A DNA stretch of 53,342 nucleotides from a virus. Lineage: Duplodnaviria; Caudoviricetes. Where the stretch lies: the IMG/VR virus record IMGVR_UViG_3300022895_000242, positions 1 to 53,342 of that record; one strand, given 5' to 3'. The notes under the pieces were generated by a model. That model made no database searches, had not been told where the DNA came from, and saw only the letters and a program-made list of their open reading frames with translations. Within the stretch, counting starts at the first letter, position 1. The number at the start of each line of letters is the position of its first letter. Made by a program: the position numbers and the translations under genes. This document shows, piece by piece, positions 11,007-50,200 of this stretch.

Positions 11007-11018
11007 TTTCTCACATCC

Positions 11019-11840: not shown

Positions 11841-14800
11841 AATGAGGCCACCCCTTTCACCATAGCTGCCATATTAGCGCCTCTGTATTGCTTTCCACTA
11901 ACGACTTTATACATGATTTCTCCAACTTTTTCACCATATAAAACCACGTCCGATGTTTCTACTTGGATGCTATTTTCTTCAGCATTGCCAGAAATATTAT
12001 TGGTAGTCGAATAGTTATTAATCATCGATGATGGCTTGTTTAAGCCGAGGTTAACTTTAGCACCACGCAACGGATTAACAATGGAAGGTTTGATAAAATC
12101 ACCGATTTTTTCAGATGCATTTGTTAAAAATGATTTTTGTCGATCAACACCAACATCAAAACCTCGTGCAAGATTACCAGCGACGAAATCACGCATCCAT
12201 CTTGAAGGACTATGAATATCTAAAGCATCTTGAATGGTCCATTTAATACTATTGGCAATCGATTTAGCCTGTTTCTGTAATTCTCCATCCATTGACTTTA
12301 ATCCATCTAATAAGCCTTGGGCAGCGTCAACACCGACCTGTTTTAGTGAACTCATTTCATTTTGAGTAGTGGTTGTAAGTGCCTTGATTTTTTCACGCCA
12401 CTCGGTTTGTAAAGTCGTTAATTGCTTCTTGGCTGTTTCCCGCAATTCTTTAATTTGCTTGTCAGCATCTTCACGCATAGTCTTTAATTCACGTTCAGTT
12501 TGATTACGTGCATCTGCTGATTTTTCTTTGTATAAATTGCTGTATTTCTCTAATTCAACTGCACTCAACTGGTTAAGAGCCTGCAACTCTCCGAGTGCTT
12601 TCGGGCCCATCTCACTAAGATCTTTTAATAGTTCTTCGCCTACGCCTCTCATAGCTAAATCATCCATAGCCCGGCGCCACTCACGGAACCCATAAACTTG
12701 ACCTTGTAGGTTGTCTAGTAGCTCTTTACCAGTAATTTCGGTGTTTCGCTTAAATTCATCAAATAGTCCAGTGGAATTGAATAATTTATCATATCGCTTG
12801 TTAAATGCATCTTCATACTCTTTGTTTAAAGCTTGTTCTTGCTTAATAAGATCATCATTGATTTTTTGCATTTCCTGTTGGTATGACTGATTAATCGAAA
12901 GAACTTCTTTATTAATCGCATCTACAGCTTTTTTATGCTCTTGCTGGGCTCGTACTCGTTCCTTACTACCATCAGCATATAACTTCAATGACTGTTCCCA
13001 AATCCTAGCTTCATCGATCAATGAGAGTTGATCTAATGACTTTTTATCATCGATGTACCTTTTAGTTTCCTCATACAAATCTTTGTACATTTTGTTATCT
13101 AAGGAAACGATATCTTTAGTCGATTTTTCTTTGATTTTTTTTATTTTGGTAGCTGCTTGCTCCTCAATTTTAGCGATCTTTTCATTTGTATCTCGAGAGT
13201 TTTTAGTACGCTTTGAGCTTGCTTCATTTCTAAGCTTTTGTACTTTGGCAATCTCATCTTTAGTTAGATTACGTTTTTTCTTTTTAGCTGCTGCATAAAT
13301 CGCGTTAATTTTCTGCGTTTCTGATTGTGCAGCTTTTTGATTTGACTCGGATGCATTTCTTTGCAGTTTCGCAATCGAATCATTTTTATCTTTTTCGATT
13401 TTCGCAATTTGATCAGCTGCATCTTTGCGTAGTTTTTTTTCTTCCGATGCATAGTGCTCGGCGATATCTTTCGCATTAAGCGCTATGTCACTTACAGCAT
13501 CGACTACTCTATCGCCAGTCTCTTCAATACCAATCGCCCAACCTTCGGAAGTCCAGTTACCGATTTGTTTGAAAACCCTAGAAGGTGAATGAATACCAAG
13601 TAATGATTTAGCTTTACTAATAACACCATCTACAACACCTGTAATCGCCTCAATCGCATTAGATGTCATATTTGTAATACCTTTGATTAGACCACTAACC
13701 AAGTCTTTACCGACATTGATCATATCGTTGACTTTACTGAGTACGCCATCTATTAGATTGCCTACTAGGTCCTTACCAGCAGTTAATATTTTTCCTAAAA
13801 AACTCAAGATTTTATCGATAAGACCTGTGATAAGTTTTGCTCCAGCGCTTATAATATCACCAAGCAATGATAATATCCCAGATATTAACTTACCTATTAG
13901 AGTTACACCAGCAGCAAGTAATTGACCAACAAAACTAAGGATTTTACCTAATAGACCAAGAATTAACTTGGCACCTGCAGCTAGAAGTTGTCCTAAGATG
14001 GATAAGACACCTTTTACAAGAGCAACAATCAATTCTGCTCCTGCTGATAATAGCTCTGGAAGAAGCTGAATAATCGCTTCTACTAATGCAACAACAAGAG
14101 TTATACCGGCCTCGATAAGTTGGGGTAAAACTTGTATTAATCCTTTTACAAGAGCCATAACAATCTGTACACCAGCATCAAGCAATTGGGGTAACAATTC
14201 AATAATCGCTTTTACCAATGACATAATCAAGGTTACTATTGCTTCTAAAATAGCTGGTAGAGCTTTTATCAACCCCTGTACCAAAGCCATAATAATTTGT
14301 ATGCCGGCCTCGATAAGTTGGGGTAAAAGTAAAATTAACGCTGCTACTAAGGCGATAACAATTGTAAGTGCTGCCTCGATTATTATAGGTAATGCTCCAA
14401 TAATTCCTTCTATCAATGTATTAAGTACCAACAAACCAACTTGAATTAGTTGAGGTAACGCAGCAGTTAAAGCATCCACAAGTGACATAACGATATTTAG
14501 GGCACTTTCAACAATTAGTGGCAATGCCGTTACTATGCCATTTAACAATGTTTCGACAATCGTTAAACCTGTCTCAATTAACAATGGCAACATCATAGTC
14601 AAAGAATTTATTATAGTATTTAGCAATTGTACGACCACTTCTATTAACATCGGTAGTGCTGTAATGATGCCGTTTATAATGGTTGTTAGCAAAGATACTC
14701 CGACTTCAACAAGTTGAGGTAATAACGTTCCTATGGTTGTTGTGACTAATTCTATTAAACTAACTATGGCTTTTACCACAATTGGCAAATTGGTCGTTAT

Positions 14801-16609
14801 GCCCTCCGCTAATTTTGTTACAATATCAGCAGCTAAAAGTATTATCTGTGGCACTATCATAACTAATGTATCAATGACAACAGGCAATATCTCTGCAAAT
14901 GCAGTTGCGAACTTTCCAATATTGCTACTTACCCCATTAATTAAACCGACAACTAGCTTGGCTCCTACTGTGACAAGTCGAGTCGATAGCTCTGTAATAT
15001 TCTCTATAACTCCACTTATAGATTCGGAGAAATTACTGGCAACCTCATCAAATGTCATTTCACCTTTGAGCATCTTAAAAGTATCTTGCAGTAAAGTAGT
15101 GTGAGTAAATACTTTTAGCAGAATATTAGCTAACATGCCCCACGGTCCTAATAACATCAATATCGATGATAAAACTGCTTCTGCGGCAAATTTGAGTAAG
15201 TTAAGTGCTTTTTCAACATCTATAATATCTTTGACGATACTTAGTTTTTCTTTAAGGCTAGACAATCCAGTTAACAATCCGTTTATTGCCGTAGTAAAGC
15301 CGCTGGATATACTAGACCATACAGCGCTCAAACTGGTACTAAGTGTTGTTGTTATTTCTGATACTACTTCGGACATCGATGTCGCGAATGATTGAATAGC
15401 CGTTAATGCAGTATTAAAAGTTTCCGTAACATCTGCCCATAAATCTTTGAAAAATTGGGTTATAGGTTCCCAATATTGGATAATTAGCAACACTGCTGTA
15501 ATTGCAGCTAATGCTACCCACGTCCATGGATTTGCCAAGACAGTTGCATTTAATGCAGTTATAGCTTTTCTAACATTACCAATTATTGTGATAGTTGTGT
15601 TAAATGCCGCAAAAGACAAAACCATGATTCCAACCGCACCTGCAATTGAGGTGATTAGTGGCATCCATGGTTCAAGATTGTGGTACAGATTCATTATCAT
15701 ATCTACTGCTGTCGGAATTCCTGCCGCGATTGCATTTAAAACGTTGCTAAAAGCCTTACCTATTAACCCTAGAATATTCTCAATTGATTGTAATGGGGTT
15801 TTAGCTAGTACATCTTGTAATGATTGTATGATGTTTGCTACACCACGTACAACAGCAGTTCTCATATTTGCAAAGGCTGTTGCGATACCAGCACTACTAG
15901 CTTTAGCAACTTCAGCAAAGCCGCCTACGCCATTGTTCAATTCGATCAATTTTGCGTTAAAATCTTCGAATGTAATTTTACCTTTTTGGAGCGCACTATA
16001 TAAATCTCGTTGTGCCGACTTCCCTGTGAAACCGAATGCCTCAGCCGTCTTATTAAGCGCAAAGCCCATCGTTTCTTGTAAGGTTTGCCATGAAACCATG
16101 TCAACTTTGCCCTTTGCCAGCATTTGTACGTATTGTACAAGACCACGTTCTGCATCAGCTGAACTTGAACCAGATGCTAAAAAAGCATTGTTAAGTGCAA
16201 GCGCTGTGTCAGTAGCAACATCTAAGTCACCAGTCATAAGCGCAATACTTTGCGTACTCTTAACAATGCCATCTAACGTTGTTGGTAGACCTGAAATACC
16301 TTCAGAAAGTTTGTCAATACTTGATTTAGCTTGGTCGCTGCTAAAGCCCATACGCTCCATAACGACTGGAAAACCACTTAATGTATCGACACGAGCTATA
16401 GCTCCACTGATAGAGCTAGTAACCATATCAATCCCTTTTCTAGCTGCTGCAACCAGTCCTAAAGCTGTTACAACTTTACCAATGGACAGCGCACTAGATT
16501 CACTCGTCCGGCCTAGTCCACCGAATAATCTACTTAAATCTGCCACACCATTTACGACACGGCCGTCATCCAATACAACGTCAATAACTATTCGACCATC
16601 ACTAGCCAT
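11837..16609 (-). CDS. Tail tape measure protein
   Basis: 1590 aa; MASDGRIVIDV start, tape-measure N domain, amphipathic repeats, two HSPSR motifs. Confidence 0.95.
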   Translation of the reverse strand: MASDGRIVIDVVLDDGRVVNGVADLSRLFGGLGRTSESSALSIGKVVTALGLVAAARKGIDMVTSSISGAIARVDTLSGFPVVMERMGFSSDQAKSSIDKLSEGISGLPTTLDGIVKSTQSIALMTGDLDVATDTALALNNAFLASGSSSADAERGLVQYVQMLAKGKVDMVSWQTLQETMGFALNKTAEAFGFTGKSAQRDLYSALQKGKITFEDFNAKLIELNNGVGGFAEVAKASSAGIATAFANMRTAVVRGVANIIQSLQDVLAKTPLQSIENILGLIGKAFSNVLNAIAAGIPTAVDMIMNLYHNLEPWMPLITSIAGAVGIMVLSFAAFNTTITIIGNVRKAITALNATVLANPWTWVALAAITAVLLIIQYWEPITQFFKDLWADVTETFNTALTAIQSFATSMSEVVSEITTTLSTSLSAVWSSISSGFTTAINGLLTGLSSLKEKLSIVKDIIDVEKALNLLKFAAEAVLSSILMLLGPWGMLANILLKVFTHTTLLQDTFKMLKGEMTFDEVASNFSESISGVIENITELSTRLVTVGAKLVVGLINGVSSNIGKFATAFAEILPVVIDTLVMIVPQIILLAADIVTKLAEGITTNLPIVVKAIVSLIELVTTTIGTLLPQLVEVGVSLLTTIINGIITALPMLIEVVVQLLNTIINSLTMMLPLLIETGLTIVETLLNGIVTALPLIVESALNIVMSLVDALTAALPQLIQVGLLVLNTLIEGIIGALPIIIEAALTIVIALVAALILLLPQLIEAGIQIIMALVQGLIKALPAILEAIVTLIMSLVKAIIELLPQLLDAGVQIVMALVKGLIQVLPQLIEAGITLVVALVEAIIQLLPELLSAGAELIVALVKGVLSILGQLLAAGAKLILGLLGKILSFVGQLLAAGVTLIGKLISGILSLLGDIISAGAKLITGLIDKILSFLGKILTAGKDLVGNLIDGVLSKVNDMINVGKDLVSGLIKGITNMTSNAIEAITGVVDGVISKAKSLLGIHSPSRVFKQIGNWTSEGWAIGIEETGDRVVDAVSDIALNAKDIAEHYASEEKKLRKDAADQIAKIEKDKNDSIAKLQRNASESNQKAAQSETQKINAIYAAAKKKKRNLTKDEIAKVQKLRNEASSKRTKNSRDTNEKIAKIEEQAATKIKKIKEKSTKDIVSLDNKMYKDLYEETKRYIDDKKSLDQLSLIDEARIWEQSLKLYADGSKERVRAQQEHKKAVDAINKEVLSINQSYQQEMQKINDDLIKQEQALNKEYEDAFNKRYDKLFNSTGLFDEFKRNTEITGKELLDNLQGQVYGFREWRRAMDDLAMRGVGEELLKDLSEMGPKALGELQALNQLSAVELEKYSNLYKEKSADARNQTERELKTMREDADKQIKELRETAKKQLTTLQTEWREKIKALTTTTQNEMSSLKQVGVDAAQGLLDGLKSMDGELQKQAKSIANSIKWTIQDALDIHSPSRWMRDFVAGNLARGFDVGVDRQKSFLTNASEKIGDFIKPSIVNPLRGAKVNLGLNKPSSMINNYSTTNNISGNAEENSIQVETSDVVLYGEKVGEIMYKVVSGKQYRGANMAAMVKGVASL

Positions 16610-16738
16610 TACATCACTCCTTTGGCCACATCAAAAAAAGAAGCCTGCTAACGTGGCTTCTAATTGCATGTTTCTTTCAATTTTTCATTCCTGTTCACCA
16701 CCTTTTTCGGCAAAAGAAAAAGCACTCAAATCGAGTGC

Positions 16739-17083
16739 TTAAAACATTTTTTGTATGAATGCTTTATAAATTTTTTGATCAATTTCTATTAAACTCTTTT
16801 TACCATCCATAAACTCGATTGCTACAACGTGAGTGCTTTTAGATTTTGCCGAAAGACCAGCGAGCCAACCAACTGGACCTAAGATAACTCCACCAACAAA
16901 GGCACGTCCTACAGCACTTGTTGCACTTTTACGTGATTCCTCATCTAGTACCTCGTATTCTTTAACTGTTGTTTTATTCAATTCAACAGTTTTTAAAAAT
17001 CCTATATTGATTGTTGTTATTCCAAATGCAGATGAAACCACCTTACCTTGGTAATCACCAGCAATTACTTTGTTTTTTGCCAT
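16739..17083 (-). CDS. Moron protein with Gly-rich hydrophobic hairpin
   Basis: AVGRAFVGGVILGPVGWLAGLS; own RBS and terminator. Confidence 0.75.
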   Translation of the reverse strand: MAKNKVIAGDYQGKVVSSAFGITTINIGFLKTVELNKTTVKEYEVLDEESRKSATSAVGRAFVGGVILGPVGWLAGLSAKSKSTHVVAIEFMDGKKSLIEIDQKIYKAFIQKMF

Positions 17084-17222
17084 TATCATCCCTCCTTATA
17101 CACAAATATACATAATATGGAGAGATTTCACTATACCCTTTACATAATCACCACCCCTTTCAATTTAAATTTTTCTTAATATTAAAAACCACTCCAGAAA
17201 TAGAGTGGCATGTTATGATAAT

Positions 17223-18236
17223 TTAATATTCTTTTACTTCAAACCACACAATTTTATCTTTAGCAATATATTCTTTAATTGATTTGAAAGGTGGCTCCGG
17301 TGACTTTATCGTGAATATATAAAAGTTTTCGGATTGAGTAGTATACCAATTAATAAAATTATTCATCTCACCATGTGTTAAATTATATTCTTTTATTTGA
17401 TTATTTAACAAATGAATTCTGAGTATTGTATTATTATTTACTTCAGGAATTTCAATGTTATGTTCTAAAGAAACTTCATTGGAATTTTCACTTTCTGTTC
17501 CATCAACAATTGCTGATATAACATAATAATATCTTTTTCCCTTTTCTATATCCTTATCTAAATAAGAATTCACCGTAATATTGTTATTAATAATAGTATA
17601 CGGACCGCCTGCAGTTGTAGCTCTTTTCACATTATATCCTATTGCATTTTCTACAGAGTTCCAAGTCAACAGATTACCCTCATCTACTGCTATTCCATTA
17701 AGTAATGGAGTGCTAATAACTTCTGATGAGACTAAATTACCTTCTTCATCTATATCAATGGCATCAACAGAAGTATAAACTCTATCTTGAGTTGATTCTA
17801 TTCTTACTTTATGTAACTCATTAGATAAATCTAGTTTTTCAAATACAATTGTTTGATTGCCATTCCCATTACCTTCAGAGTAATGATAAACCTCATCATC
17901 AATTGTGATTTTTACATTATTCGAATGATCTGCTGCTTTAGCAAAAGCTATAATTCTTATTTTACTTCCAGTAAAGTTAAAGCTATAATAGTCACCTTTT
18001 TTTGTTGTATGATGATTAGTGTTTTGATAAAAACCATGTTTAGAGCCTGCATCAGAACTAATAAAATTTGTTTTTACAAATTCATTTCTATCATCATACC
18101 TCTTCCATCCCTCATCAGGTTGTAAGGACTTCTCCCCTAAAGATGCTGCCTGAACATTATTTACACCAACTGATATAAATGATGTCGAAATTAGTATTGC
18201 CACAACTAAAACTATCTTTTTCAATATTTTGTTCAA
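17223..18236 (-). CDS. Secreted protein: signal peptide, beta-rich domain, FN3 domain, conserved C-terminal domain
   Basis: VQA signal; LTWNSVENAIGYNVKRATTAGGPY...YYYVISA is FN3; TTG start after AGGAGG. Confidence 0.85.
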   Translation of the reverse strand: MNKILKKIVLVVAILISTSFISVGVNNVQAASLGEKSLQPDEGWKRYDDRNEFVKTNFISSDAGSKHGFYQNTNHHTTKKGDYYSFNFTGSKIRIIAFAKAADHSNNVKITIDDEVYHYSEGNGNGNQTIVFEKLDLSNELHKVRIESTQDRVYTSVDAIDIDEEGNLVSSEVISTPLLNGIAVDEGNLLTWNSVENAIGYNVKRATTAGGPYTIINNNITVNSYLDKDIEKGKRYYYVISAIVDGTESENSNEVSLEHNIEIPEVNNNTILRIHLLNNQIKEYNLTHGEMNNFINWYTTQSENFYIFTIKSPEPPFKSIKEYIAKDKIVWFEVKEY

Positions 18237-18336
18237 TTTAATCCCTCCTATACTATAAATATACATGGATAATGAAGGAAGTACTATCACTATTTTCAAT
18301 TTACAAATCCTTCACGCCCTCAATTAAAAAACACCC

Positions 18337-18588
18337 TCATACGAGAGTGTTTAAAAGTTGCCTTTTTTCGATTTGTTTTATTAATAACTGGTTCATCCAC
18401 TTAAGATATGGCTGATTGCTTTTAGATAAGAAGCCAAAGTTTTTGAGATCTAATAACTGAAAGTCACTCATTTTTTCTACTGCCTCTTGCCACCAATATC
18501 CAACGTCAGTTGTTTTTGGCGGTGATACCCCAATACATTTTGAGAAGTCATTAATTAACATTAGTAACTTTTCTTCTTTTTCACTCAT
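18337..18588 (-). CDS. 83 aa hypothetical protein, paralogue of 20884-21054
   Basis: AGGAGG RBS; ungapped similarity over 47 aa. Confidence 0.75.
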   Translation of the reverse strand: MSEKEEKLLMLINDFSKCIGVSPPKTTDVGYWWQEAVEKMSDFQLLDLKNFGFLSKSNQPYLKWMNQLLIKQIEKRQLLNTLV

Positions 18589-18654
18589 AATTTTGTCCTC
18601 CTATTTTGAGGACATCCACTTTTAAAAATACTCTTTTTAGAGTATAATTAAGCT

Positions 18655-18728
18655 AATATTGTTTTGGGTGGATGTCACTCGACTGTTACCGCATTTCAAG
18701 CGCCAACTTGAAGTGTGGTTTTTTTATT
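18655..18728 (+). ncRNA. Putative cis-antisense RNA with CopA-like CGCCAA loop
   Basis: TATAAT at 18643-18648, then hairpin ACCGCATTTCAAG-CGCCAA-CTTGAAGTGTGGT plus T tract. Confidence 0.5.
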
Positions 18729-19347
18729 TTATAACTCTCAAATGCCCTACTTTATTCATCTTAATTTTCTGTGGTTTTCCATCATGTACATAATAAGCTT
18801 GTCCTTTCTCATCTTTGAAGGTATCAGGTGTGTCTTCTCCTTCTGCCGCCATAAATTCCTCGAATAAACTTAAATGCCCTTCGTAACGTCTTATCGCGCT
18901 CATAGTAGTCATACTTTTAACAAATAACATCCATATATCATGATTCTGATATTCACTTAAAAATTCTAAAGCATATTCACCAACAACATCGTCTGGTTTC
19001 AATTCAGTACTCTCAATATATTCTTTTGTGTAAAAATAATCCTTAGTACCCCATTTGTGTCCATCGAACTCTTTTGTGATAGGGAATACGTTCATAAATT
19101 GTCGAAGTGTCATAGTCGCTATAAGACCTTTGAGATTACTAATAGAATTGAAATAATTGATATTCATTTCATAATCTTCGTATTCTGGTGAAGTAATAAT
19201 ATTTTTAACACCATACCAAATGATTTTTTCTAAATTATTTTTGATAGCTTTCTTATCACCATCATCATTTTGTTCTATTGCCTTTTCTAACGTCCGTCTA
19301 AGTGCTGAACTATATAAATTATGTTTATCTTTTCTTTGTTTCACCAT
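18724..19347 (-). CDS. Phage hypothetical protein downstream of the second antirepressor
   Basis: 207 aa; FPITKEFDGHKWGTKDYF motif; function unknown. Confidence 0.75.
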   Translation of the reverse strand: MVKQRKDKHNLYSSALRRTLEKAIEQNDDGDKKAIKNNLEKIIWYGVKNIITSPEYEDYEMNINYFNSISNLKGLIATMTLRQFMNVFPITKEFDGHKWGTKDYFYTKEYIESTELKPDDVVGEYALEFLSEYQNHDIWMLFVKSMTTMSAIRRYEGHLSLFEEFMAAEGEDTPDTFKDEKGQAYYVHDGKPQKIKMNKVGHLRVIK

Positions 19348-19352
19348 AACTA

Positions 19353-20024
19353 TTAAGACCTCACCACTCTAGGAACCCATGATTCTACATACCTGATACA
19401 AGAAAGGAACTCATGGCGTTTCACATCTTTGTAACTCGTAACACCAAATCGATCTTTAATTTCACGATGCAATTCTGGATATAATAAACGCTTATGTTCA
19501 TCAGATGTAGCGTGTTCAAACACTTTAGAGCCAATTAACTTTTGCAACCTACGTTGTTCACCGTGGTCAAGCGTGATTTGATTATCTACTTTTTCTTTTA
19601 ATTCATGAACTTCCACTTTTAAAACCTCAACTTCTTCTGATGTTTCAAGCGATAATCTCATAGAAGCTTTAAGCTGTTCTTTTTCCGAAAGTGGTTTAGG
19701 ATTATTCTGTTGTTGTTCCATTTCATTAAATCGAGATACATATGTTGCGGTAAATAAAATGCCTTTTTCTCCAGTCATTTTGTTACCAACCATTTCACAG
19801 CCTTTTTTTGTAAGAAGATAACAAGGTCTTGATTTCCCTTGAGCATCTTGATATTCATGTTCTATGAAAAAATCAGCCAATCCAAAATTGGATTTACCTA
19901 AAATTCCCACATATCCTTGTATATCCCTCATTAAATGTGCATGATTTTTTCCTGTCATTTCTGCAACTTGACGACTTTCTGTCACTAATTGTCCTTCGAA
20001 TGAAATTATTTGTAATTGTTTCAT
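19353..20024 (-). CDS. Rha-family / ORF6C antirepressor-type regulator
   Basis: ESRQVAEMTGKNHAHLMRDI, CYLLTKKGC (Rha); FGVTSYKDVKR (ORF6C). Confidence 0.9.
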   Translation of the reverse strand: MKQLQIISFEGQLVTESRQVAEMTGKNHAHLMRDIQGYVGILGKSNFGLADFFIEHEYQDAQGKSRPCYLLTKKGCEMVGNKMTGEKGILFTATYVSRFNEMEQQQNNPKPLSEKEQLKASMRLSLETSEEVEVLKVEVHELKEKVDNQITLDHGEQRRLQKLIGSKVFEHATSDEHKRLLYPELHREIKDRFGVTSYKDVKRHEFLSCIRYVESWVPRVVRS

Positions 20025-20043
20025 GTAATACCTCCATTAATTG

Positions 20044-20265
20044 TTAAGTAGTTTTCACCTGTGCATTTTCAACACTGATTTCTGCAAAAAAAATGGTCCA
20101 TTCTATTCCTAAGACTCTCGAAATAGCTTGTGCAACTTTTACACTAGGTCGTAAACCATTTTCAATTCTGGTATAATATGAACGTTCTATACCTATCAAA
20201 CTAGCTACTTGTTCATGTGATAACTCTAAAGTCTTTCGTTTGTTCTTTAAAACTTCTGCAAACAT
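20044..20265 (-). CDS. Cro-like XRE HTH protein (second switch)
   Basis: LSHEQVASLIGIERSYYTRIENG.RPS; start at MFAEV after AAGGTGGTG. Confidence 0.88.
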   Translation of the reverse strand: MFAEVLKNKRKTLELSHEQVASLIGIERSYYTRIENGLRPSVKVAQAISRVLGIEWTIFFAEISVENAQVKTT

Positions 20266-20278
20266 TTCATCACCACCT

Positions 20279-20376
20279 TGTGCATTTATTACACATATTA
20301 TATCGTGCACTTTTTGCACAGTCAATCTGTTTTGTGTATTTTTTTCACAAAATATTTATTGTGCAAAAAATTCACA
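20279..20376. promoter_or_regulatory. Four 17-bp operators TGTG-N9-CACA with divergent promoters; fifth copy at 20060-20076
   Basis: Sites at 20279-20295, 20304-20320, 20333-20349 and 20360-20376. Confidence 0.8.
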
Positions 20377-20406
20377 TATAATACAGAATAGAAAGGGGCG
20401 TTCAAT

Positions 20407-20835
20407 ATGAAATATGGGGATATTTTAAAAAAACTCAGAACCGAAAAAGGGTTATCCCAAAAAGAATTAACTGACCAACTTGCAATTAATAGGTCAACAT
20501 ATGCGCGCTATGAAACATCATCTACTCAACCTGACTTCGATACTTTAGAAAAATTGGCTGATTATTTTAATGTATCGATTGACTATCTATTAGGCAGAAC
20601 TAATAATTCCGTTTCATATTTAGAAAAAACACAAGAAATTAATGTAAGTAACGAATTAAACGACCGTTTAACGCTTCTCCAGAACGAGCTTAAAACATCA
20701 AAACATCTTACTTTCAACGGCGAACCGATGTCTGAAGAAGCAAAGGAAGCGTTATTAGAAGCAATGCAGTTCGGCATCCGTTTAATAGAGAAACAGAAAA
20801 AGAAACAGGTAAAAGACGAGAGTGAAGAAATATAA
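20407..20835 (+). CDS. ImmR/CI-like XRE repressor (second switch)
   Basis: N-terminal HTH; C-terminal FNGEPMSEEAKEALLEAMQFGIRL nearly identical to 50346-50774. Confidence 0.9.
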   Translation: MKYGDILKKLRTEKGLSQKELTDQLAINRSTYARYETSSTQPDFDTLEKLADYFNVSIDYLLGRTNNSVSYLEKTQEINVSNELNDRLTLLQNELKTSKHLTFNGEPMSEEAKEALLEAMQFGIRLIEKQKKKQVKDESEEI

Positions 20836-20883
20836 CCTTCCCCAAAACTGGGGAAGGTTTCTTCATCCCACAATCCCCTAAGC

Positions 20884-21054
20884 TCATACACCTATTTTCA
20901 CTTCATCTAAACGAGCTAAGAGCATTCCGTTCATTTGCTGCACACACTTATTATCATTTCTATTAAAAACATTATTATCACTCAACCATTGCAAATCTTT
21001 TACATCTAGTTTTTTTAACATCTCTTTCCACGCTAACCCTAAATCATTGTTCAT
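20884..21054 (-). CDS. 56 aa hypothetical protein (not in the ORF track)
   Basis: MNNDLGLAWKEMLKKLDVKDLQWL...; AAAGGAGG RBS; similar to 18337-18588. Confidence 0.75.
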   Translation of the reverse strand: MNNDLGLAWKEMLKKLDVKDLQWLSDNNVFNRNDNKCVQQMNGMLLARLDEVKIGV

Positions 21055-21082
21055 ATTATTTTCCTCCTTTATTTAGAAAACG

Positions 21083-21143
21083 AAAAAACCCCAAATTTAA
21101 GCAGACTATCAATTGATAATCGTGCTAAAAATTTGGGGTTTTC
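21083..21143 (-). terminator. Long leader hairpin/terminator upstream of the 56 aa gene
   Basis: AAAACCCCAAATTT...AAATTTGGGGTTTT arms followed by a U tract on the - strand. Confidence 0.65.
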
Positions 21144-21455
21144 CCTTTTAATATGTATTTTTGAGTTAATTATCAAAAATCATATCATGCTTTAGCTTGA
21201 TTAGTCAATTATATTTTTGCATCTAAATAATTCCTAATTAATTTATAGATACCATTGTCTATATCTCTTTCATGTTGTAAGTTTTTTATTTTCCAACTTG
21301 ATATAACTTTTCATCCAGTCTCCATTTCATCATTCTACCTTTTCCTCTTACCGTTTCTTTTTGTTCATCGTTTCACTTCTAAACTAGATCAAAACATTAC
21401 TAAAGGCATTCCTCCTTTTCTGTCGAATATTGACATTATTGAGGAGGTGATACGT

Positions 21456-21689
21456 ATGGCTGATTTTAAAGATGTATTGCTTGAATACTTGCATGCAAAC
21501 AAAGACAATAAAAAATTTGAAGTTGATTTCACAGTATTTAAAGATTTCAGCTACGAAGATGTCGCAACCATGTTTGAAGAATTAATCTCTACTGGTAAAA
21601 TTGATGGATTTGTAGACTACCAACATTATCAACCTGAAGTTTTCATTGAAAAGATTAATTGGAATCACTTCCAACATCATCTGAAGTAA
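21456..21689 (+). CDS. 77 aa acidic moron protein with sigma-H-type promoter
   Basis: GAGGAGGTG RBS; AAAGGCATT-N11-GTCGAAT at about 21402-21428. Confidence 0.7.
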   Translation: MADFKDVLLEYLHANKDNKKFEVDFTVFKDFSYEDVATMFEELISTGKIDGFVDYQHYQPEVFIEKINWNHFQHHLK

Positions 21690-21885
21690 ATATGACATTC
21701 CGAATGTTGAGCGTTATTTGCACGTTATGACTCCCGTCAGATAACGTTTCAACATTTACATTTTTTACGCGATTCAACAACTGGCTCCCTAATTGCACTT
21801 TCAAATACCTATCCGCTGTGTAATGTAGGTTCAACGTTGTTGGACACTGGGCCGTTGTTAAAGGATATGCTTTTCCTATTTCCAT
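21655..21885 (-). CDS. Hypothetical protein
   Basis: 76 aa with AAAGGGGTG RBS. Confidence 0.55.
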   Translation of the reverse strand: MEIGKAYPLTTAQCPTTLNLHYTADRYLKVQLGSQLLNRVKNVNVETLSDGSHNVQITLNIRNVIFTSDDVGSDSN

Positions 21886-21922
21886 GTCTGCACCCCTTTC
21901 AATTAGGTGATAAGAACATTAT

Positions 21923-22507
21923 TCAGTCATCTACTTCCTGCTCACGAGGCTTCAACGCATATGCTTTCTTCAATTCCTCAACCTGTTTTCTTTGCTCGCC
22001 TGTACCTTTACCTTTTGGTAGTGGCATCTGACGTATTTCGAGGACCTTTTTAAACTTTGTATCATCTCGTAAACCAACTAAAAGGGCTTTGAATTTATCC
22101 CAATGTAAAATACCTTGTTGTTCAAATAGATCCATGCCGTAATCCTGCAAAAAGGAAGCATAAATATACTCTGCATCTTGTGCAATATCATATATGTCCA
22201 CTTCCTTTTCTTTTGATTGTACTGGCATTGGATTCCCTTCAATGTCGTACTCAACATCGTCCTCTTTATTACCATCAATCAAGGTTTCATATAGTTTAAA
22301 AAAGATTTCAGCCTTTTCCTCAATTGGACATTCTAAAGGCTCTGTTACTAGCATCTCAATGCCTGTAAGTATCTGAGTTACATCATCAAGCTCTTTGTCG
22401 TTTAACATGTCAATAAGGCTTAAAATATTGTCAAAAGACATGTCTAAACTGTACATACGACCATTTATCTCAATTTCATTAATCAATGTATCCGTCAATT
22501 TAAACAT
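21923..22507 (-). CDS. Tail assembly chaperone, A118 Gp15 family
   Basis: DAEYIYASFLQDYGMDL, LHWDKFKALL, T.F..V.EIR motifs. Confidence 0.9.
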   Translation of the reverse strand: MFKLTDTLINEIEINGRMYSLDMSFDNILSLIDMLNDKELDDVTQILTGIEMLVTEPLECPIEEKAEIFFKLYETLIDGNKEDDVEYDIEGNPMPVQSKEKEVDIYDIAQDAEYIYASFLQDYGMDLFEQQGILHWDKFKALLVGLRDDTKFKKVLEIRQMPLPKGKGTGEQRKQVEELKKAYALKPREQEVDD

Positions 22508-22516
22508 GGCAATAAC

Positions 22517-22906
22517 CTACTTTTTGTTTTTATGTTTAGGTTTTCTTTTTTGACGAATATATTGTTGTGCTTTGTCCTGTTGAGTAGCATTTAAATTCAT
22601 CTTTGATAACTCTTGATTTATCGATTTGCTTAGCTCACCAAAAATACGCATACATTCAATTAAACTTTTAACTTCGTTGTAAACTTGGTTAAAAGTACCT
22701 TCACCTAAAATTAAATCGTAACCTTGTTTTAAAAGGTCTTTAGCTGCATCGAAATCATCGTCATTTATCTTGTCAGCATTTTCTAAAAGTAATTCACCTG
22801 ATTTTTTTAAATTTTGAATCCCTTCATCAGATGTATCGAATGCGAATTTTAAATCACCAATTTGTACAGGTATTCCAGCTTTTTGCGTTTGAATTTTGAT
22901 TACCAT
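22517..22906 (-). CDS. Tail assembly chaperone (A118 Gp14-like)
   Basis: Position between the tail tube and Gp15; D.ILGEGTF..VY motif. Confidence 0.75.
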   Translation of the reverse strand: MVIKIQTQKAGIPVQIGDLKFAFDTSDEGIQNLKKSGELLLENADKINDDDFDAAKDLLKQGYDLILGEGTFNQVYNEVKSLIECMRIFGELSKSINQELSKMNLNATQQDKAQQYIRQKRKPKHKNKK

Positions 22907-22939
22907 TTATCCCACTCCTTTTAAATTAAAAGAGGACGA

Positions 22940-23018
22940 TTACTCGCCCTCTTCTTCGATCAGTTCTTTGGTTTCTTCCTCTTCTGTGCCTTTGCCCGAA
23001 TCATCGGGCTCATCAGGG
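22940..23018 (-). other. Predicted +1 frameshift site CCC-TGA and 24 aa acidic extension of the tail tube
   Basis: Gene ends ACA CCC TGA; the +1 frame reads DEPDDSGKGTEEEETKELIEEEGE*. Confidence 0.65.
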
Positions 23019-23456
23019 TGTAACTGGTAGTACTGTCATAGTTGGTTTAGCATCCCATGAAATACGGCAATTGAATGGCGCGTATTCCGATGCTTCGCCG
23101 CCAGTAATTTTAATTTCTGATACTGTAGCACGTCCTACAAACTCAGTGCCGTCTGTGCGAACTTGCTTAAACATAATTTTACGGGCTTCTCCTGTCTCAA
23201 ACTCAAGGTCTGCGATTAACTTTTGTGCTGCATCCTCAATATCGTGCATACCTTCGAATGTGTATGCCTTTTTCACCGAAATTACATCTGTTTCTTTCGT
23301 GCCATCACCATCATAAAACGCATATTCCTCTGTTTCTTCCTCACCATCATCTGTAACAGAAGATATCCATTTCGCTAACCGTAAATCTGCTTTGCTATTT
23401 TCGTCTTCATATTTGCCTATCCAGTACTCCGTTAAGGCGTTCTTTTTACGTGCCAT
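23013..23456 (-). CDS. Major tail tube protein
   Basis: RLAKWISSV...YDGDG...D.AQ motifs of A118-type tail tubes. Confidence 0.88.
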   Translation of the reverse strand: MARKKNALTEYWIGKYEDENSKADLRLAKWISSVTDDGEEETEEYAFYDGDGTKETDVISVKKAYTFEGMHDIEDAAQKLIADLEFETGEARKIMFKQVRTDGTEFVGRATVSEIKITGGEASEYAPFNCRISWDAKPTMTVLPVTP

Positions 23457-23855
23457 TTAAGCCACTCCTTTATGAATTGTTATTGTTGCACTAATTGATA
23501 ATTCGTAAATAAAAAAGCCCTGATCATCTATCATGATGAGTGAGGGCAATGAAGTTATTTTTGTTTGTTGGTAGTCGTAACTACCATTATCAGATGGTAA
23601 ATCAGTTAAGTTTTCGAGATTTTGAAATAGCGTGCTTAAAGTATTGATACAATTATCTTGTTTCTTGCTTTTCGCATTGATTTGAACTTGATAAGCTTTA
23701 TCCCTAGTACCATCAAAGAATATTTTTTCGGCTCCACCAGGCATTGCCATGACGGATAGGCTTTCTTCTTTCCCAAGGACACCTATAACACTTTTAGCAA
23801 AGAAACTTTGTTTATTAATATATCGATTGAGTTGTACTAAAAAATCTAATTCCAT
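23457..23855 (-). CDS. Tail terminator (Minor_capsid_3-like)
   Basis: LPSDNGSY motif; A118 synteny. Confidence 0.8.
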   Translation of the reverse strand: MELDFLVQLNRYINKQSFFAKSVIGVLGKEESLSVMAMPGGAEKIFFDGTRDKAYQVQINAKSKKQDNCINTLSTLFQNLENLTDLPSDNGSYDYQQTKITSLPSLIMIDDQGFFIYELSISATITIHKGVA

Positions 23856-24185
23856 TTACCTCATCGCCCTTTTTACGATATTCACCCAACTAGCACCGTG
23901 TATCGCTTGTGCTTTAACGTCCCATTTAGGACCGGTACCTGGCGTTGTGAATTTAGCACCATAATTGTAATACTGCTTTCTAGCATAAGGAGTATTCCAA
24001 ATGATAGATTTACCGTCTGCAGCGATAGTTGATTGGTTACGTAGATCACTAGAAAGCTTTGGTGCGTATATGTTGGAATCAGCGTGTACTTGGTTTACAA
24101 AAGCGATTTGCCCACGTCTTACTAATTCTTCAGCTCTCACACGCACACCATTAATTTCTGTACTTACTCTAATTCTCGCTGTCAT
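23856..24185 (-). CDS. Neck protein (Minor_capsid_2-like)
   Basis: WNTPYARKQYY...TTPGTGPKWD motif. Confidence 0.85.
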   Translation of the reverse strand: MTARIRVSTEINGVRVRAEELVRRGQIAFVNQVHADSNIYAPKLSSDLRNQSTIAADGKSIIWNTPYARKQYYNYGAKFTTPGTGPKWDVKAQAIHGASWVNIVKRAMR

Positions 24186-24529
24186 TAAATCACTTCCAAT
24201 TCATAGTGACGGATTTTGTTCTTGTTAGGATGATAGCAAGGCACAATCTTTTTAAGTATTAACTCTCTACCTTCAAAAATAATGATAGATTCCTCTTTAA
24301 AATCAGGAATCGGTGAGCTATTGACAGCATCCACAAAGATTACACCCTCGGCCACTATTTTTGTTTGAGTATTGTCACGACTAAACACTGTAGTAGGATC
24401 ATAACGCACAAATTCGATATCGATTGGTTCCTTATACATGGGATTCCCGTAATCGTCTTTTTCATCAAGGATTTCTTTATAGGTAATGTCGTGTATAAGC
24501 CAACTTTTCGGCAATGGCTTAATGTACAT
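24185..24529 (-). CDS. Head closure protein (Minor_capsid_1-like)
   Basis: DDYGNP..., FVDAVNS, HYELEV; synteny. Confidence 0.8.
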   Translation of the reverse strand: MYIKPLPKSWLIHDITYKEILDEKDDYGNPMYKEPIDIEFVRYDPTTVFSRDNTQTKIVAEGVIFVDAVNSSPIPDFKEESIIIFEGRELILKKIVPCYHPNKNKIRHYELEVI

Positions 24530-24912
24530 TAAATCACCTCGATTCCTCTATATAAAAGCCCTGTATTACGTAAATACATATAGACATCATCAGCAACGAT
24601 GTTATTAAGTTTTGCTTGGTTTCTCACGCCACTTGATATAGAAGTACGACCAATAGAAACAGACAAAGGATTATTTAATTCATGAGCACTTGTACCACCC
24701 ATATCATTAAAATACTCGATTTGAGCAGCGACAGCCTTTTTGAATTTATCTCGACGTAATTGATAATCAGACTCCAAATCATTAAGTTGATAAAAGTCAC
24801 GAGTGATACTATCTAAAACATCACTCGCTTTTTGTTCTAGTTTTGGAAAGTCAGCTGCTGTTACATCAGAAAATCCAAAGTTTTGGTATTCATCGTAAGA
24901 TAGGTATAGCAT
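24529..24912 (-). CDS. Head-tail adaptor
   Basis: YLSYDEY, KKAVAAQIEY, SIGRTS, L..TGLLYRG motifs. Confidence 0.82.
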   Translation of the reverse strand: MLYLSYDEYQNFGFSDVTAADFPKLEQKASDVLDSITRDFYQLNDLESDYQLRRDKFKKAVAAQIEYFNDMGGTSAHELNNPLSVSIGRTSISSGVRNQAKLNNIVADDVYMYLRNTGLLYRGIEVI

Positions 24913-24920
24913 ATTAACAC

Positions 24921-25232
24921 CTACTTTGCATTCGGATCTGGTTGTTTCATTTCTAGCTCTTTTTCGAGCTTCGTCACTTTTGCTTTAAGCACTTTATTTT
25001 CTTTGGTCAAATCTTCATTTTCTTTTGCTAGATCCACATTTTTTAAATTTTCTAACTCATCAACTACCGCATTGTGTTCAGCAAGTGATACGCTACGCCC
25101 ACCAGTTGCACGTTTAACAACTTTGCCTTCGCTGTCAATTTGGTCATAACCTTGTTGCAAATGTGCTGATAAACGACCTTCATCTATATCTAAAATGCGA
25201 TTACCTTTTCGTACTTTTACTACATTACCCAT
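24921..25232 (-). CDS. Hypothetical head-associated coiled-coil protein
   Basis: Directly after the major capsid gene. Confidence 0.7.
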   Translation of the reverse strand: MGNVVKVRKGNRILDIDEGRLSAHLQQGYDQIDSEGKVVKRATGGRSVSLAEHNAVVDELENLKNVDLAKENEDLTKENKVLKAKVTKLEKELEMKQPDPNAK

Positions 25233-25278
25233 GCTTGTTCCCTCCTAATAAAATTAAAAGAGGACTAAAAAAGTCCCT

Positions 25279-26244
25279 TTAGGCTTCAGTATTAATTTTT
25301 ATTCCATCAACTTTTTTAGCAATTACGAAAAGATCCCAGTACTTGCGTTCGAAGTATAAATATTTACCGCCTGTCGCTGCCGATGGATTATCCAATGAAA
25401 CGAATTCATATTTTTGCGGTGTAATAACTGTTAATGGATGAATTAAAATCATGTTAATTTGTTTAGCAGTCACATCTGCTACTGCGCCATCTGTAAAGTT
25501 ATAAACTGTTTTCATACGAGATGATGGGACAACTTTAATCGTTACATCGTCAAGTGAGTAAATGCTACGTTTTACATTACCAGCGTTCCCACTCGCTACA
25601 TCTAATTGACGTTGGAGACCTTGAGCAGTTTTTAATAACTTATTAACAGTTGGTGTCACATATAAAACTCGACCGGTTTGTGGCACTTCCGCATCGTCCA
25701 TAGCTGCCATAAAATCATCGAAAATGTCTAAGATATTTTCTGAAGTTAATGCTGTAGTATCTACAGTTCCACCATGAGCAGTAAATTCAGTGACTAATTT
25801 CGATGCTGCGTATTTGTCCATTTCAGGAATCTTCTGTTCATCGTTAAACACGCGTGTAATGTTCGCAATCGTTAGTGCCATGTTCGTTTCATCAACATCC
25901 ATTGGATCCACTAACGTTTTAAATTCACGATCGTGATCAATTGTTTTTGGCTCAAAATCGTTATCAGTACGACGAGTGAATGAACCAACTACATCACGGT
26001 CCACATCAACAAAGCCGCCTACTGTAATACGTGGGATTTGGATTGTTTTAGCGCTTGTCCACTTAATGTTTGCGTTGTTGGCTGTGCTGTATAGCTCGAC
26101 AAACATTAATCCAGTTGTGAATTTTTGTTGTAGTGCTTGGGTATACAGTTCTGCGTAGTTAGGTGCTGCAAAAAATTGAATATCTAATTTTAATAACATT
26201 TTCATACCTTGGTAATTTGGTAATGATTTAATAACATGTTTCAT
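25279..26244 (-). CDS. Major capsid protein
   Basis: 321 aa after the scaffold; HDR....VDPMDVDET and PEMDKY motifs; LDIQFFA leader. Confidence 0.9.
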   Translation of the reverse strand: MKHVIKSLPNYQGMKMLLKLDIQFFAAPNYAELYTQALQQKFTTGLMFVELYSTANNANIKWTSAKTIQIPRITVGGFVDVDRDVVGSFTRRTDNDFEPKTIDHDREFKTLVDPMDVDETNMALTIANITRVFNDEQKIPEMDKYAASKLVTEFTAHGGTVDTTALTSENILDIFDDFMAAMDDAEVPQTGRVLYVTPTVNKLLKTAQGLQRQLDVASGNAGNVKRSIYSLDDVTIKVVPSSRMKTVYNFTDGAVADVTAKQINMILIHPLTVITPQKYEFVSLDNPSAATGGKYLYFERKYWDLFVIAKKVDGIKINTEA

Positions 26245-26269
26245 AGCATTTGTTCCTCCTAATTTTTAA

Positions 26270-26902
26270 TTACTTAAATGCGTTTAACCATTGCTCTGCT
26301 TCTGTTGTTGATTGGGTACCATGTTTACCTTGGGAAAACTTTGGCTTTGATTGTTCTTGCTGTTGCGATTCTTCTTTTTGAGCAAAATGAGGATACTTTT
26401 CAACTATCTTAGAAATAGCTGTATCCATATCCACATCATCACTCACCATTGTTTTGGCAAGTGTTACAACATCAGTGACATAATCAGCAATTACACCTGC
26501 TTTCATTGCACTGATTTGAGCTTTAAGTACTGAGTTTTCATCTGACAATGTTGATTGATTTGTTTCTAATTCTTTCAAACGTTCAGCTTGCTTTTCTTGC
26601 TCAGTTTTTTGTGACTCTTCAAATTCCCTCAGCTTCAATATGCTTTCCTTTGCTTTTTCAACATTTTCGAATCCCAATTGTTTAAGTACTTTGTTTTGTG
26701 TGTCGTTCTTTTGTTTTGCAAGGAAACTATTCAGTTCATCCTGAGTAAATGTTTTAGCCTCATTTTGACTTTGAGTATCCCCAGCACTTTCCTGCTGGTT
26801 GGTTTCTTGTGTGTTATTTTCTTGTTGATTTGTTTCCCCTTCTGTCTCTTCTGCAAAAAACTGAAGGTCTAAAGGTAAGAAAAATGTTTGTTTATTGTTC
26901 AT
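26270..26902 (-). CDS. Capsid scaffolding protein
   Basis: LDLQFFA, KTFTQDELN, coiled coil, KYPHF. Confidence 0.88.
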   Translation of the reverse strand: MNNKQTFFLPLDLQFFAEETEGETNQQENNTQETNQQESAGDTQSQNEAKTFTQDELNSFLAKQKNDTQNKVLKQLGFENVEKAKESILKLREFEESQKTEQEKQAERLKELETNQSTLSDENSVLKAQISAMKAGVIADYVTDVVTLAKTMVSDDVDMDTAISKIVEKYPHFAQKEESQQQEQSKPKFSQGKHGTQSTTEAEQWLNAFK

Positions 26903-26986
26903 TCTTAAATCCCCCTAACAAAGGTTATTTGCCCATGTTTTGTTTAACGCCCACTTCATGGTAAACGGGCAATAAAAAAGCCCTCT

Positions 26987-27060
26987 TTATTTAGAGGACT
27001 TCCAATATTGTTCTTCTGCAATTTTTCTTGCTTCTATTGCTTCTTCTAAAGTGTCGACAA
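26987..27060 (-). pseudogene. Remnant C-terminus of an AP2-domain (HNH-AP2-like) protein
   Basis: Reads VDTLEEAIEARKIAEEQYWKSSK* with no start of its own. Confidence 0.55.
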
Positions 27061-27309
27061 AGAATGTTTCAATTCGCTAGCTTCACCGTAGCTTAGTCCT
27101 CTAATTTGTACTTTGCTGTTCATTACGTGTACCAGTTCATCGTTGTAAGCACTTTTGTAAAAATCTTCTTTTGCATCAAATGACTTTTTGGGAACAACAA
27201 TTACTTCCTCGATACCTTCAGCTACAATAGCTACAAATACAAATGGTGATTGCGTTTCTCTCGCTTTTGCAAACGTATTTGATAAATGCTGTTTAGTTAA
27301 TGACATCAA
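27046..27309 (-). CDS. Small phage protein of unknown function
   Basis: 87 aa; EVIVVPKKSFDAKEDFYKSAYNDEL; coupled to the DUF2829 gene. Confidence 0.75.
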   Translation of the reverse strand: MMSLTKQHLSNTFAKARETQSPFVFVAIVAEGIEEVIVVPKKSFDAKEDFYKSAYNDELVHVMNSKVQIRGLSYGEASELKHSLSTL

Positions 27310-27518
27310 TTAACTACCTCCCAATTCTCTGCAAATAGTTCAATCATCGTTTCCTTCCATGGAACACGTCCGAAACGACTTTCCACATACAAATATGGAG
27401 CTGTCATTTTGCTATGCTCATCTGGATATTGAGCACGAATAATAACATCTGTCTGCCATTGCGGTAAACGCATACCTTTGCCTTGCTTTACTTCTTCAAA
27501 TGCTTGACCAAAATTCAT
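27306..27518 (-). CDS. DUF2829 / Tad2-like protein
   Basis: MNFGQAFEEVKQGKGMRLPQW...PYLY...VPW......FAENWEVV pattern; GGAGG RBS. Confidence 0.72.
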   Translation of the reverse strand: MNFGQAFEEVKQGKGMRLPQWQTDVIIRAQYPDEHSKMTAPYLYVESRFGRVPWKETMIELFAENWEVVN

Positions 27519-27571
27519 TGTAATACCTCCATTTTTATAAAAATGCATAATAAAAAGCCGTATCTCTACGA

Positions 27572-27724
27572 CTACAAGACTTCTTTTTCTTTAACGAAAT
27601 ATGCGTTCCTTGATTTCTCTCCCTCTTCCTCAGCTTTTTTACGCTTTTTGTAAACATCTTTCAGTTCAAAGTTTTCTGCGAAACCACCAGACGTCATTAA
27701 ATAAAGCAAATATACTTTTTTCAT
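27572..27724 (-). CDS. 50 aa hypothetical protein (not in the ORF track)
   Basis: MKKVYLLYLMTSGGFAENFELKDVYKKRKKAEEEG...; ATGA coupling and AAGGAG RBS. Confidence 0.6.
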   Translation of the reverse strand: MKKVYLLYLMTSGGFAENFELKDVYKKRKKAEEEGEKSRNAYFVKEKEVL

Positions 27725-28845: not shown

Positions 28846-28849
28846 TTAA

Positions 28850-50173: not shown

Positions 50174-50200
50174 AAAATGCACCTCCTTAAAACTATTGAA

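Follow-up and report, generated by a model that had tools for sequence, protein, structure and literature searches.

A second repressor/cro switch between the tail chaperone and tape-measure genes of a Bacillota provirus, a possible counterpart of the P22 immI region

Background

Why would a prophage that has a primary immunity switch carry a second one among its tail genes? The question is raised by the provirus record IMGVR_UViG_3300022895_000242 (Caudoviricetes), the whole 53,342 bp of which were analysed and are called the window below. The prophage, from a soil bacterium, is apparently complete: besides an integrase and the primary switch it has genes for recombination, replication, the terminase, portal, capsid and tail, and for a holin and an endolysin (CheckV completeness 84%). 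A sequence-only reading had described a complete second switch in its tail module: in a 5.3-kb insert between the genes for a Gp15-family tail chaperone and the tape-measure protein, a repressor gene (rep2, plus strand) diverges from a cro-like gene (cro2), an antirepressor-type gene (ant2) and a gene of 207 codons (g207), all on the minus strand. Our analysis bears out this description.

The balance tips slightly toward the following answer. The module would be a portable secondary immunity cassette, a Gram-positive counterpart of the P22 immI "ant moron" based on helix-turn-helix (HTH) repressors, derived from the head of a heteroimmune early operon of AimC/phi105 type and lodged in a cargo hotspot between the chaperone and tape-measure genes; it probably acts in rivalry between phages. 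The new observations are these: the switch is of the type that is primary in other proviruses, such cassettes recur at the same junction in unrelated phages, a conserved antisense RNA candidate accompanies them, and a 56-aa gene (g56) occupies the position of the arbitrium gene aimX.

Results and discussion

The second switch and its operators

The window has three exact TGTG-N9-CACA sequences, which share a stretch of 98 bp (20279-20376) at the divergence of rep2 and cro2. The expected number is 0.73, and three or more were found in 2 of 100 shuffled sequences. With at most one mismatch allowed, the window has 18 such sites, six of which fall within 317 bp (20060-20376; binomial P = 8e-10). 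The four operators and a fifth at the 3' end of cro2 that had been read from the sequence are recovered, three as exact matches and two (20304 and, at the cro2 3' end, 20060) with one mismatch; a further one-mismatch site, at 20129 inside cro2, had gone unlisted. The primary switch has five TTAAACG-N3-CGTTTAA sites (at most two mismatches) at 49959-50312, against an expectation of 0.40 and 0 of 100 shuffles. The two switches have the same multi-operator layout with a different specificity, as had been claimed.

The description of the two repressors was also accurate. Rep1 (primary switch) and Rep2 are both 142 aa long and have different HTHs, with 39% identity overall (E-value = 4e-33) and a near-identical C-terminal motif, FNGEPMS..LEAM.FGIRL; the shared stretch is 86% identical over 72 nt at the DNA level. 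The dN/dS ratio is 0.12-0.20 for ant2, g207, cro2, the N-terminal part of rep2 and g56. Judged from these comparisons, the cassette genes are intact and under purifying selection, and all switch parts are intact when set against primary switches of working type.

The switch is of a type that is primary in other proviruses

The sequence-only reading had suggested looking for TGTG-N9-CACA switches in other elements. Two to three exact sites each were found at the rep/cro region of six loci (L004, L005, L006, L042, L043 and L044), and by sequence other Planococcaceae proviruses have operators of this type in their primary immunity switch. The HTH of Rep2 is 85% identical to that of the primary-switch repressor of one of them (provirus G002, locus L004), in which an integrase gene lies 0.6 kb after the repressor gene, and between Cro2 and the Cro of the G002 primary switch identity is 76-78%. 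The primary switches of the other five loci match as well. In an alignment with three primary switches, all operators and both the -35 and the -10 element are conserved, and the control region has a mean column identity of 82%. The third helix of the HTH is identical in Rep2 and the G002 repressor, so that Rep2 should bind phages of the G002 immunity group. On this comparison Rep2 should repress the TGTG immunity group at large, and the earlier suggestion of repression of a heteroimmune phage is strengthened: in other proviruses, the primary switch is made of these operators and this promoter together with an HTH of 85% identity.

The gene order, rep diverging from cro-ant-g207, matches the primary early regions of Wbeta-like phages and of four further loci (L075-L078). 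The g207 homologues of Wbeta-type phages and L075-L078 come after ant and before the replication genes (in Wbeta-like phages, the replisome organiser). Because the switch parts match primary switches and the g207 homologues precede replication genes, the cassette appears to come from a foreign early operon, of which it keeps the head but not the replication genes.

Recurrence at the chaperone/tape-measure junction

Such a module could have been unique to this strain; it is not. Provirus G002, which has a contractile tail, carries its own tail cassette (L073): an XkdN-type chaperone gene is followed by rep, cro, ant, g207, small genes, a gene for a DUF4352 secreted protein and the tape-measure gene. 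The ant and g207 products are 84% and 76% identical to those of the window, whereas rep and cro are accompanied by GAAAC-N5-GTTTC operators, unlike those of the window. At the nucleotide level, 1,437 nt are 82% identical between the two proviruses, and there are short homologous flanks too; rep, cro and operators differ. This alignment pattern is that of a mosaic exchange of rep/cro around a kept payload.

A search with the repressor of the G002 tail cassette yielded 20 loci. Two were G002 and another provirus record, G001, themselves, eight were adjacent to an integrase gene and eight could not be placed; the remaining two (L081 and L082) are tail-embedded myovirus cassettes with ORF6N+ORF6C antirepressor-type genes. 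Cassettes of rep, cro and ant at the chaperone/tape-measure junction are found in the window and in three contractile-tail proviruses (G002, L081 and L082), and cro and ant have the orientation of the tail genes in 4/4 of them. The second cassette of G001 (L003), of GAAAC type, comes after DnaC and includes a homologue of g56 and a Bro-N/ANT protein. In every provirus examined, the immunity type of the second switch is one that serves other phages as their primary type. In the isolated myovirus PVJ1, the tape-measure gene directly follows XkdN and there is no insert. The literature, covered mostly by abstracts, yielded no account of such an HTH cassette (rep, cro and ant) at the chaperone/tape-measure junction of Gram-positive phages.

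Two side observations concern these relatives. The G001 record, a single virus record of 50 kb, has three repressor-type loci and two integrase-type genes (L071, 1609-3658; L003, 3124-3912; L072, 8397-14994), and may be two elements side by side. In L082, arrays of repeated DNA with recurring "SINYVECKF"- and "WIEI"-type reading frames flank the cassette of that myovirus (7735-8344 and 10765-11352).

The repressor C-terminal domain and the g56 gene

The AlphaFold2 model of Rep2 consists of the HTH, a linker, and then a helix, a beta-hairpin and a helix. Its best matches in the PDB (Foldseek) are 9sf2_A and 9iaq, a phi106 repressor-AimX complex and an arbitrium antirepressor entry, and Rep2 matches 9sf2_A by profile as well (E-value = 3e-15). 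Identity with the phi105 immunity repressor is 31% over 94% of Rep2. A recent preprint (bioRxiv 10.1101/2025.11.23.689978) describes the C-terminal domain of AimC repressors as the one that dimerises them, and AimX as a small protein that binds this domain and blocks DNA binding; the genes are ordered aimX, convergent aimC and divergent aimL. By the AimC precedent, we assign the C-terminus shared by Rep1 and Rep2 as the oligomerisation and antirepressor-docking domain of AimC/phi105-type repressors.

The sequence-only reading had proposed, as one option, a bipartite immunity in which both repressors respond to one inducer or hetero-oligomerise. The shared C-terminus does not compel a common inducer. 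The FNGEPMS..LEAM motif is present in many repressors with unrelated HTHs, and HTHs of the same types also occur with other C-termini, an S24 peptidase among them; the C-termini of the two G002 repressors are unrelated. From the AimC precedent, hetero-oligomers or an antirepressor acting on both would be conceivable. In locus L086 (9980-12937), a GAAAC-type HTH is fused to an S24 self-cleaving domain, and a DUF4352/phrog_806 gene and a serine integrase gene follow. Since L086 joins this HTH to the S24 domain, the HTH and C-terminal domains of these repressors seem to be shuffled freely. The end of the C-terminus defines subtypes, KKKQ..DESEEI in Rep2 versus NKKYIPKKYR in Rep1. Co-adaptation of the C-termini of a phage's two repressors was considered as a general rule and discarded, being absent from the two repressors of G002.

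The order g56, rep2, cro2 in the window is that of aimX, aimC and aimL. In L003, the second-switch repressor has a neighbouring gene whose product is 78.6% identical to that of g56. This repressor shares the C-terminal subtype of Rep2 while its HTH, cro and operators differ; g56 thus travels with the Rep2 C-terminal subtype in the window and L003. No Pfam or PHROGs family includes g56, and a search of viral contigs with it was empty. In G002, a 39-aa open reading frame (ORF) with a strong ribosome-binding site (RBS) is found in the g56 position.

These data also bear on a strict bipartite immunity of the P22 style, in which Ant2 or the g56 product inactivates Rep1 and Rep2 keeps the prophage dormant, as Mnt does in P22, possibly with mixed oligomers or a shared antirepressor. 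The layout matches immI. Rep1 and Rep2 share a C-terminal domain family and a near-identical FNGEPMS..FGIRL core, in a domain that is both dimer interface and antirepressor docking site in AimC-type repressors. Moreover, Pfam identified no S24 self-cleavage domain in either repressor, and an ImmA/IrrE-type protease (Peptidase_M78, PF06114) had no match in the record, while control genomes do match; for these two reasons a protein antirepressor is a plausible inducer. We nevertheless think bipartite immunity unlikely. The motif is family-wide, Rep1 and Rep2 are of different tail subtypes, the repressors of G002 have unrelated C-termini though its ant is 84% identical, and the primary switch already has an antirepressor-type gene of its own (ant1). 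AimX-AimC pairs may also be specific, according to the preprint (bioRxiv 10.1101/2025.11.23.689978).

The payload and an antisense small-RNA candidate

The window and G002 tail-cassette copies of ant2 and g207 have dN/dS ratios of 0.15 and 0.12, respectively. The P22_AR_N domain is present in ant1 of the primary switch, not in ant2. The AlphaFold2 model of the g207 product is helical (pLDDT 79); it had no PDB match at E-value ≤ 0.001, and the Atlas gave unnamed clusters only, with scores of 0.80 or less.

Some 140 nt after g207 are about 92% identical between the window and G002, versus 82% for coding DNA (91% mean column identity over a 200-nt alignment; 92% over 128 nt by blastn). We identified here a candidate antisense small RNA of about 80 nt. 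The element follows ant in 5/5 second cassettes regardless of ant type. Conserved -35 and -10 boxes lie on the strand opposite ant; of its two hairpins, the small one has an invariant core and the other is a terminator with a U-tail. All aligned base pairs are kept (90/90 cells), four of them with compensatory changes on both sides, and the fold has a z-score of -3.8; 11 G-U cells would read as A-C mismatches if the RNA came from the opposite strand. A covariance model of the element gave a single further match, a weak one (L085, 33.8 bits), in 75 sources. Rfam has no family at gathering score in the window, and at E-value ≤ 1 the region 18300-21700 gave only chance-level matches of microRNA type. 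A search for trans targets of the small-RNA core gave four matches with up to three mismatches, where 2.2 are expected.

The conservation of the payload weighs on a simpler explanation, namely that rep2 alone matters, as a gene for immunity to the TGTG group, and that cro2, ant2, g207 and the small RNA are recombination passengers, permanently silent. Operators and HTH do match a primary immunity group, and the insert was made by a recombination that duplicated the Gp15 3' end. However, the dN/dS values just given come from comparison with another tail-embedded copy, payload and small RNA are kept in cassettes with exchanged rep/cro, and the promoter and operator parts on the cro2 side are all intact, which makes silent passengers improbable.

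Less probable again is a form of the sentinel idea of the sequence-only reading, in which Cro or an antirepressor of an infecting or co-resident TGTG-group phage would flip the switch, so that ant2 and g207 fire and either induce the prophage or hinder the rival. It would suit the 76-78% identity of Cro2 with the primary Cro of G002-type phages, which have the same operators, and the finding that every provirus examined carries a second switch of a type primary elsewhere. But Rep2 should block the cro gene of an intruder before any Cro is made, and there is no link from either ant2 or g207 to abortive infection or induction; for g207, no fold match was found.

The insert and its borders

The Gp15 chaperone gene (21923-22507; PF06854, E-value = 2.5e-47) and the tape-measure gene (11837-16609) are 5,313 bp apart. 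In 10 of 14 related Gp15 loci (L034, L035, L037-L041 and L101-L103), the N-terminus of the tape-measure protein is encoded 54-676 nt after Gp15, versus 5.3 kb in the window. Of the other four, L036 matched only later parts of the tape-measure protein, L033 and L100 stop within a different insert, and L104 is too short. The uninterrupted form of the junction is present in L034, where a small gene with a CxxC...CxxC (zinc-ribbon-like) pattern lies between Gp15 and the tape-measure gene (9588-9716) of this insert-free relative. The left junction and a conserved leader are common to L033 (Gp15 88% identical) and L100 (97%). Because these loci hold other small genes behind the same junction and leader, we regard the site as a cargo hotspot in flux.

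Contigs of other sequencing runs bridge both insert junctions with zero differences, so that the insert is not an assembly chimera. The stretch was found in four soil metatranscriptome runs, the contigs of which fill 30, 30, 29 and 28 of 30 bins of window positions 10001-30000. These contigs include head and tail genes at low depth, without information on strand or level, and may stem from DNA carry-over or lytic growth. No near-identical DNA was found in the phage collection, and a distant search there matched ant-type pieces only.

No integrase or other recombinase was identified among the insert genes (16610-21922) from ORFs, Pfam and PHROGs. A 14-nt exact repeat, CACCCCTTTCAATT (17152 and 21891), was considered as an attachment site (att) and rejected: both copies are RBS-like and the copy at 17152 precedes an ATG-TAA stub. 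On the minus strand at 17140-17165, this RBS resembles that of the L034 tape-measure gene and is followed by ATG-TAA, which looks like the stub of an older junction inside the insert. The caveat that the module might be a decayed independent element with its own att ends is borne out only as far as imperfect flanking repeats are concerned. That the insert is a functionless mosaic scar, or what is left of a separately integrated element, is very improbable, since against these repeats, the several terminators that break up the tail operon and the CheckV estimate of 84% stand the lack of a recombinase, genes that are all open and under purifying selection, an intact control region, the recurrence of the design in four proviruses, and a prophage that otherwise looks complete.

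Other features of the insert

Read in the direction of the tail genes (minus strand), the insert starts with a 76-aa gene and an opposite-strand 77-aa gene with a conserved leader (Table 1). A promoter-like site with a long hairpin, g56, a two-way terminator, rep2 on the opposite strand and the operator region come next; cro2, ant2, g207, the conserved non-coding stretch, and three genes named g83, g358 (predicted secreted) and g116 end it. Each of these last three is followed by a terminator-like hairpin. Relatives of g83 follow ant in L082 (31% identity) and L003 (42%), and a homologue of g116 (59%) directly precedes the tape-measure gene in L081. A paralogue of g358 lies at 3234-4280 (plus strand), beyond the lysis genes; both encode predicted secreted proteins of phrog_10059 with CE2_N-like and Ig/FN3-like parts. 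The leader (21380-21465) is about 90% identical in L100 (2093-2175), L082 (11653-11725) and L033 (6341-6400), ahead of different small genes that run opposite to the tail genes. By eye it shows a CCTCC...GGAGG hairpin that would cover the RBS.

Table 1. Positions of the genes and sequence elements of the insert, in window coordinates
Feature	Position	Strand	Remarks
Left junction	21921..21975	-	Gp15 3' end, one copy of imperfect direct repeat of ~40 nt; aligned with the stretch before the tape-measure gene and the uninterrupted L034 form
76-aa gene, first of insert	21655..21885	-	No family; replaced by other DNA in L100 (Gp15 97% identical)
Leader (~80 nt, 21380-21465) and 77-aa gene (ATG 21456)	21380..21689	+	Against tail genes
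Promoter-like site and long leader hairpin ahead of g56	21078..21208	-	TTGACT-18-TATGAT (10/12 matches)
g56 (56 aa)	20884..21054	-	Convergent with rep2, AimX position; candidate small antirepressor; strong RBS
Two-way terminator hairpin between rep2 and g56	20834..20859		
rep2 (142 aa)	20407-20835	+	HTH_3, E-value = 9e-16; AimC/phi105-type repressor (HTH, linker, C-terminal oligomerisation domain)
Switch region	20266..20406		Predicted operators 20279-20295, 20304-20320, 20333-20349, 20360-20376
cro2 promoter (predicted)	-35 at 20325-20320, -10 at 20302-20297	-	
cro2	ORF 20044-20325, probable ATG at 20265	-	HTH_3, E-value = 4e-13; operator-like sites 20060-20076 and 20129-20145
ant2	19353-20024	-	Phage_pRha, E-value = 1e-25; ORF6C, E-value = 7e-14; antirepressor-type
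g207 (207 aa)	18724-19347	-	Helical; phrog_6329, no Pfam family
Candidate antisense small RNA (~80 nt)	18621..18730	+	Promoter 18621-18648, RNA ~18650-18730; two hairpins and U-tail
g83, small gene after payload	18337..18588	-	Terminator 18329-18352
g358, predicted secreted protein, moron	17223..18299	-	phrog_10059; terminator 17188-17209
g116, moron	16739..17089	-	phrog_20920; terminator 16720-16740
Right junction	16628..16690	-	Degenerate copy of Gp15 3' end, hairpin and T-run; tape-measure start (16609) directly after

Proposed function

As a portable secondary immunity cassette, the module might work as follows. In the lysogen, a weak promoter of its own would supply Rep2, which would bind the TGTG operators and shut the strong cro2 promoter, by which cro2, ant2 and g207 would be kept off; the same Rep2 would repress incoming phages of the TGTG group. 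The cassette would flip when Rep2 is removed by way of its C-terminal oligomerisation domain, either by the g56 product or by whatever inactivates the related Rep1, and would then express its payload. Late read-through could be an alternative route to payload expression, since cro2, ant2 and g207 share the orientation of the tail genes. The payload transcript may be limited or insulated by the antisense small-RNA candidate that lies after g207.

Several observations weigh against this account. Neither AimR nor AimP is there to drive g56: between rep2 and Gp15 there are only family-less ORFs of 56, 77 and 76 aa. A small ORF with a convincing RBS beside the repressor is present in 3/5 cassettes, and not in L081 or L082. 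The antirepressor role of Rha/ORF6C proteins such as Ant2 is annotation only, and the functions of antirepressor-type proteins are called speculative in the phiCDKH01 paper (PMC11172241). Since the ant of G002, 84% identical, coexists with two repressors whose C-termini are unrelated to those of Rep1 and Rep2, a fixed pairing of Ant with its own repressor is unlikely. On the coding strand, four or more hairpins that resemble intrinsic terminators separate Gp15 from the tape-measure gene (16720-21149) and suggest an antitermination step or an internal promoter. Finally, the 49 loci retrieved with Rep2 as the query, a set from which close relatives may be missing, include no tail context.

A wider proposition is doubtful as yet, though worth stating: that Bacillota phages, both long- and contractile-tailed, swap portable second-immunity cassettes at the chaperone/tape-measure site as a means of conflict between phages. 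Each cassette would comprise rep, cro and operators of Xre type from a rival group, an antirepressor-type payload, an antisense RNA and, in some cases, an AimX-like protein. A resident copy would repress rivals of its group, and a flipped copy would release proteins that act on the repressors of rivals or on the phage's own.

If the portable-cassette account is true, Gram-positive phages have arrived independently, with HTH proteins, at what P22 has in its second immunity region among tail genes, and have done so by copying the primary switch of a rival; prophages of soil Bacillota then have a simple route to cross-immunity. The parts that the locus offers are defined: operators of two types, ant genes of three, a new candidate small RNA and a protein in the AimX position without AimR. 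The locus also connects with the recent finding that AimC-type repressors are switched off by small proteins docking on the oligomerisation domain. For annotators, finding a repressor/cro pair among tail genes is not enough to call a prophage chimeric or broken.

Comparison with known systems

Mnt and Arc of P22 are ribbon-helix-helix proteins, whereas both repressors of the window cassette are of Xre type (HTH_3). Ant2 combines Rha and ORF6C and is not a homologue of P22 Ant. The analogy with immI drawn in the sequence-only reading fails on these two points and holds for the layout, that is, divergent repressors, ant, the direction of the tail genes and a variable insert. Set beside the published description of the immI "ant moron" of P22 and P22-like phages (PMC2629481), both are variable, independently regulated inserts inside an operon of virion genes, missing from some relatives and with content in rapid flux among related phages. 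In both, a maintenance repressor gene diverges from genes for a small second repressor and an antirepressor-type protein that run in the direction of the tail genes, and an antisense small RNA, here a candidate, is part of the module. The RNA candidate lies 3' of ant and g207, not over the start of ant as P22 sar does. The insertion sites also differ, chaperone/tape-measure in Bacillota sipho- and myoviruses versus gene 16/gene 9 of a podovirus, and the present switch, unlike immI, copies the primary switch of another phage.

The extended arbitrium module of phi106, BMBtp14 and Wbeta-like phages resembles the window cassette in its repressor (HTH, linker and two antiparallel C-terminal helices joined by a beta-hairpin), in the cro-like gene divergent from it and in a small convergent ORF in the AimX position; the Wbeta-like phages share the downstream ant and g207 homologues too. 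The window cassette differs in having neither AimR nor AimP, in a g56 product without detected similarity to any family, and in being a second copy within a tail operon, cut off before the replication genes. The phi105 immunity repressor is, like Rep2, a short HTH repressor, but it is the single, primary repressor of its phage.

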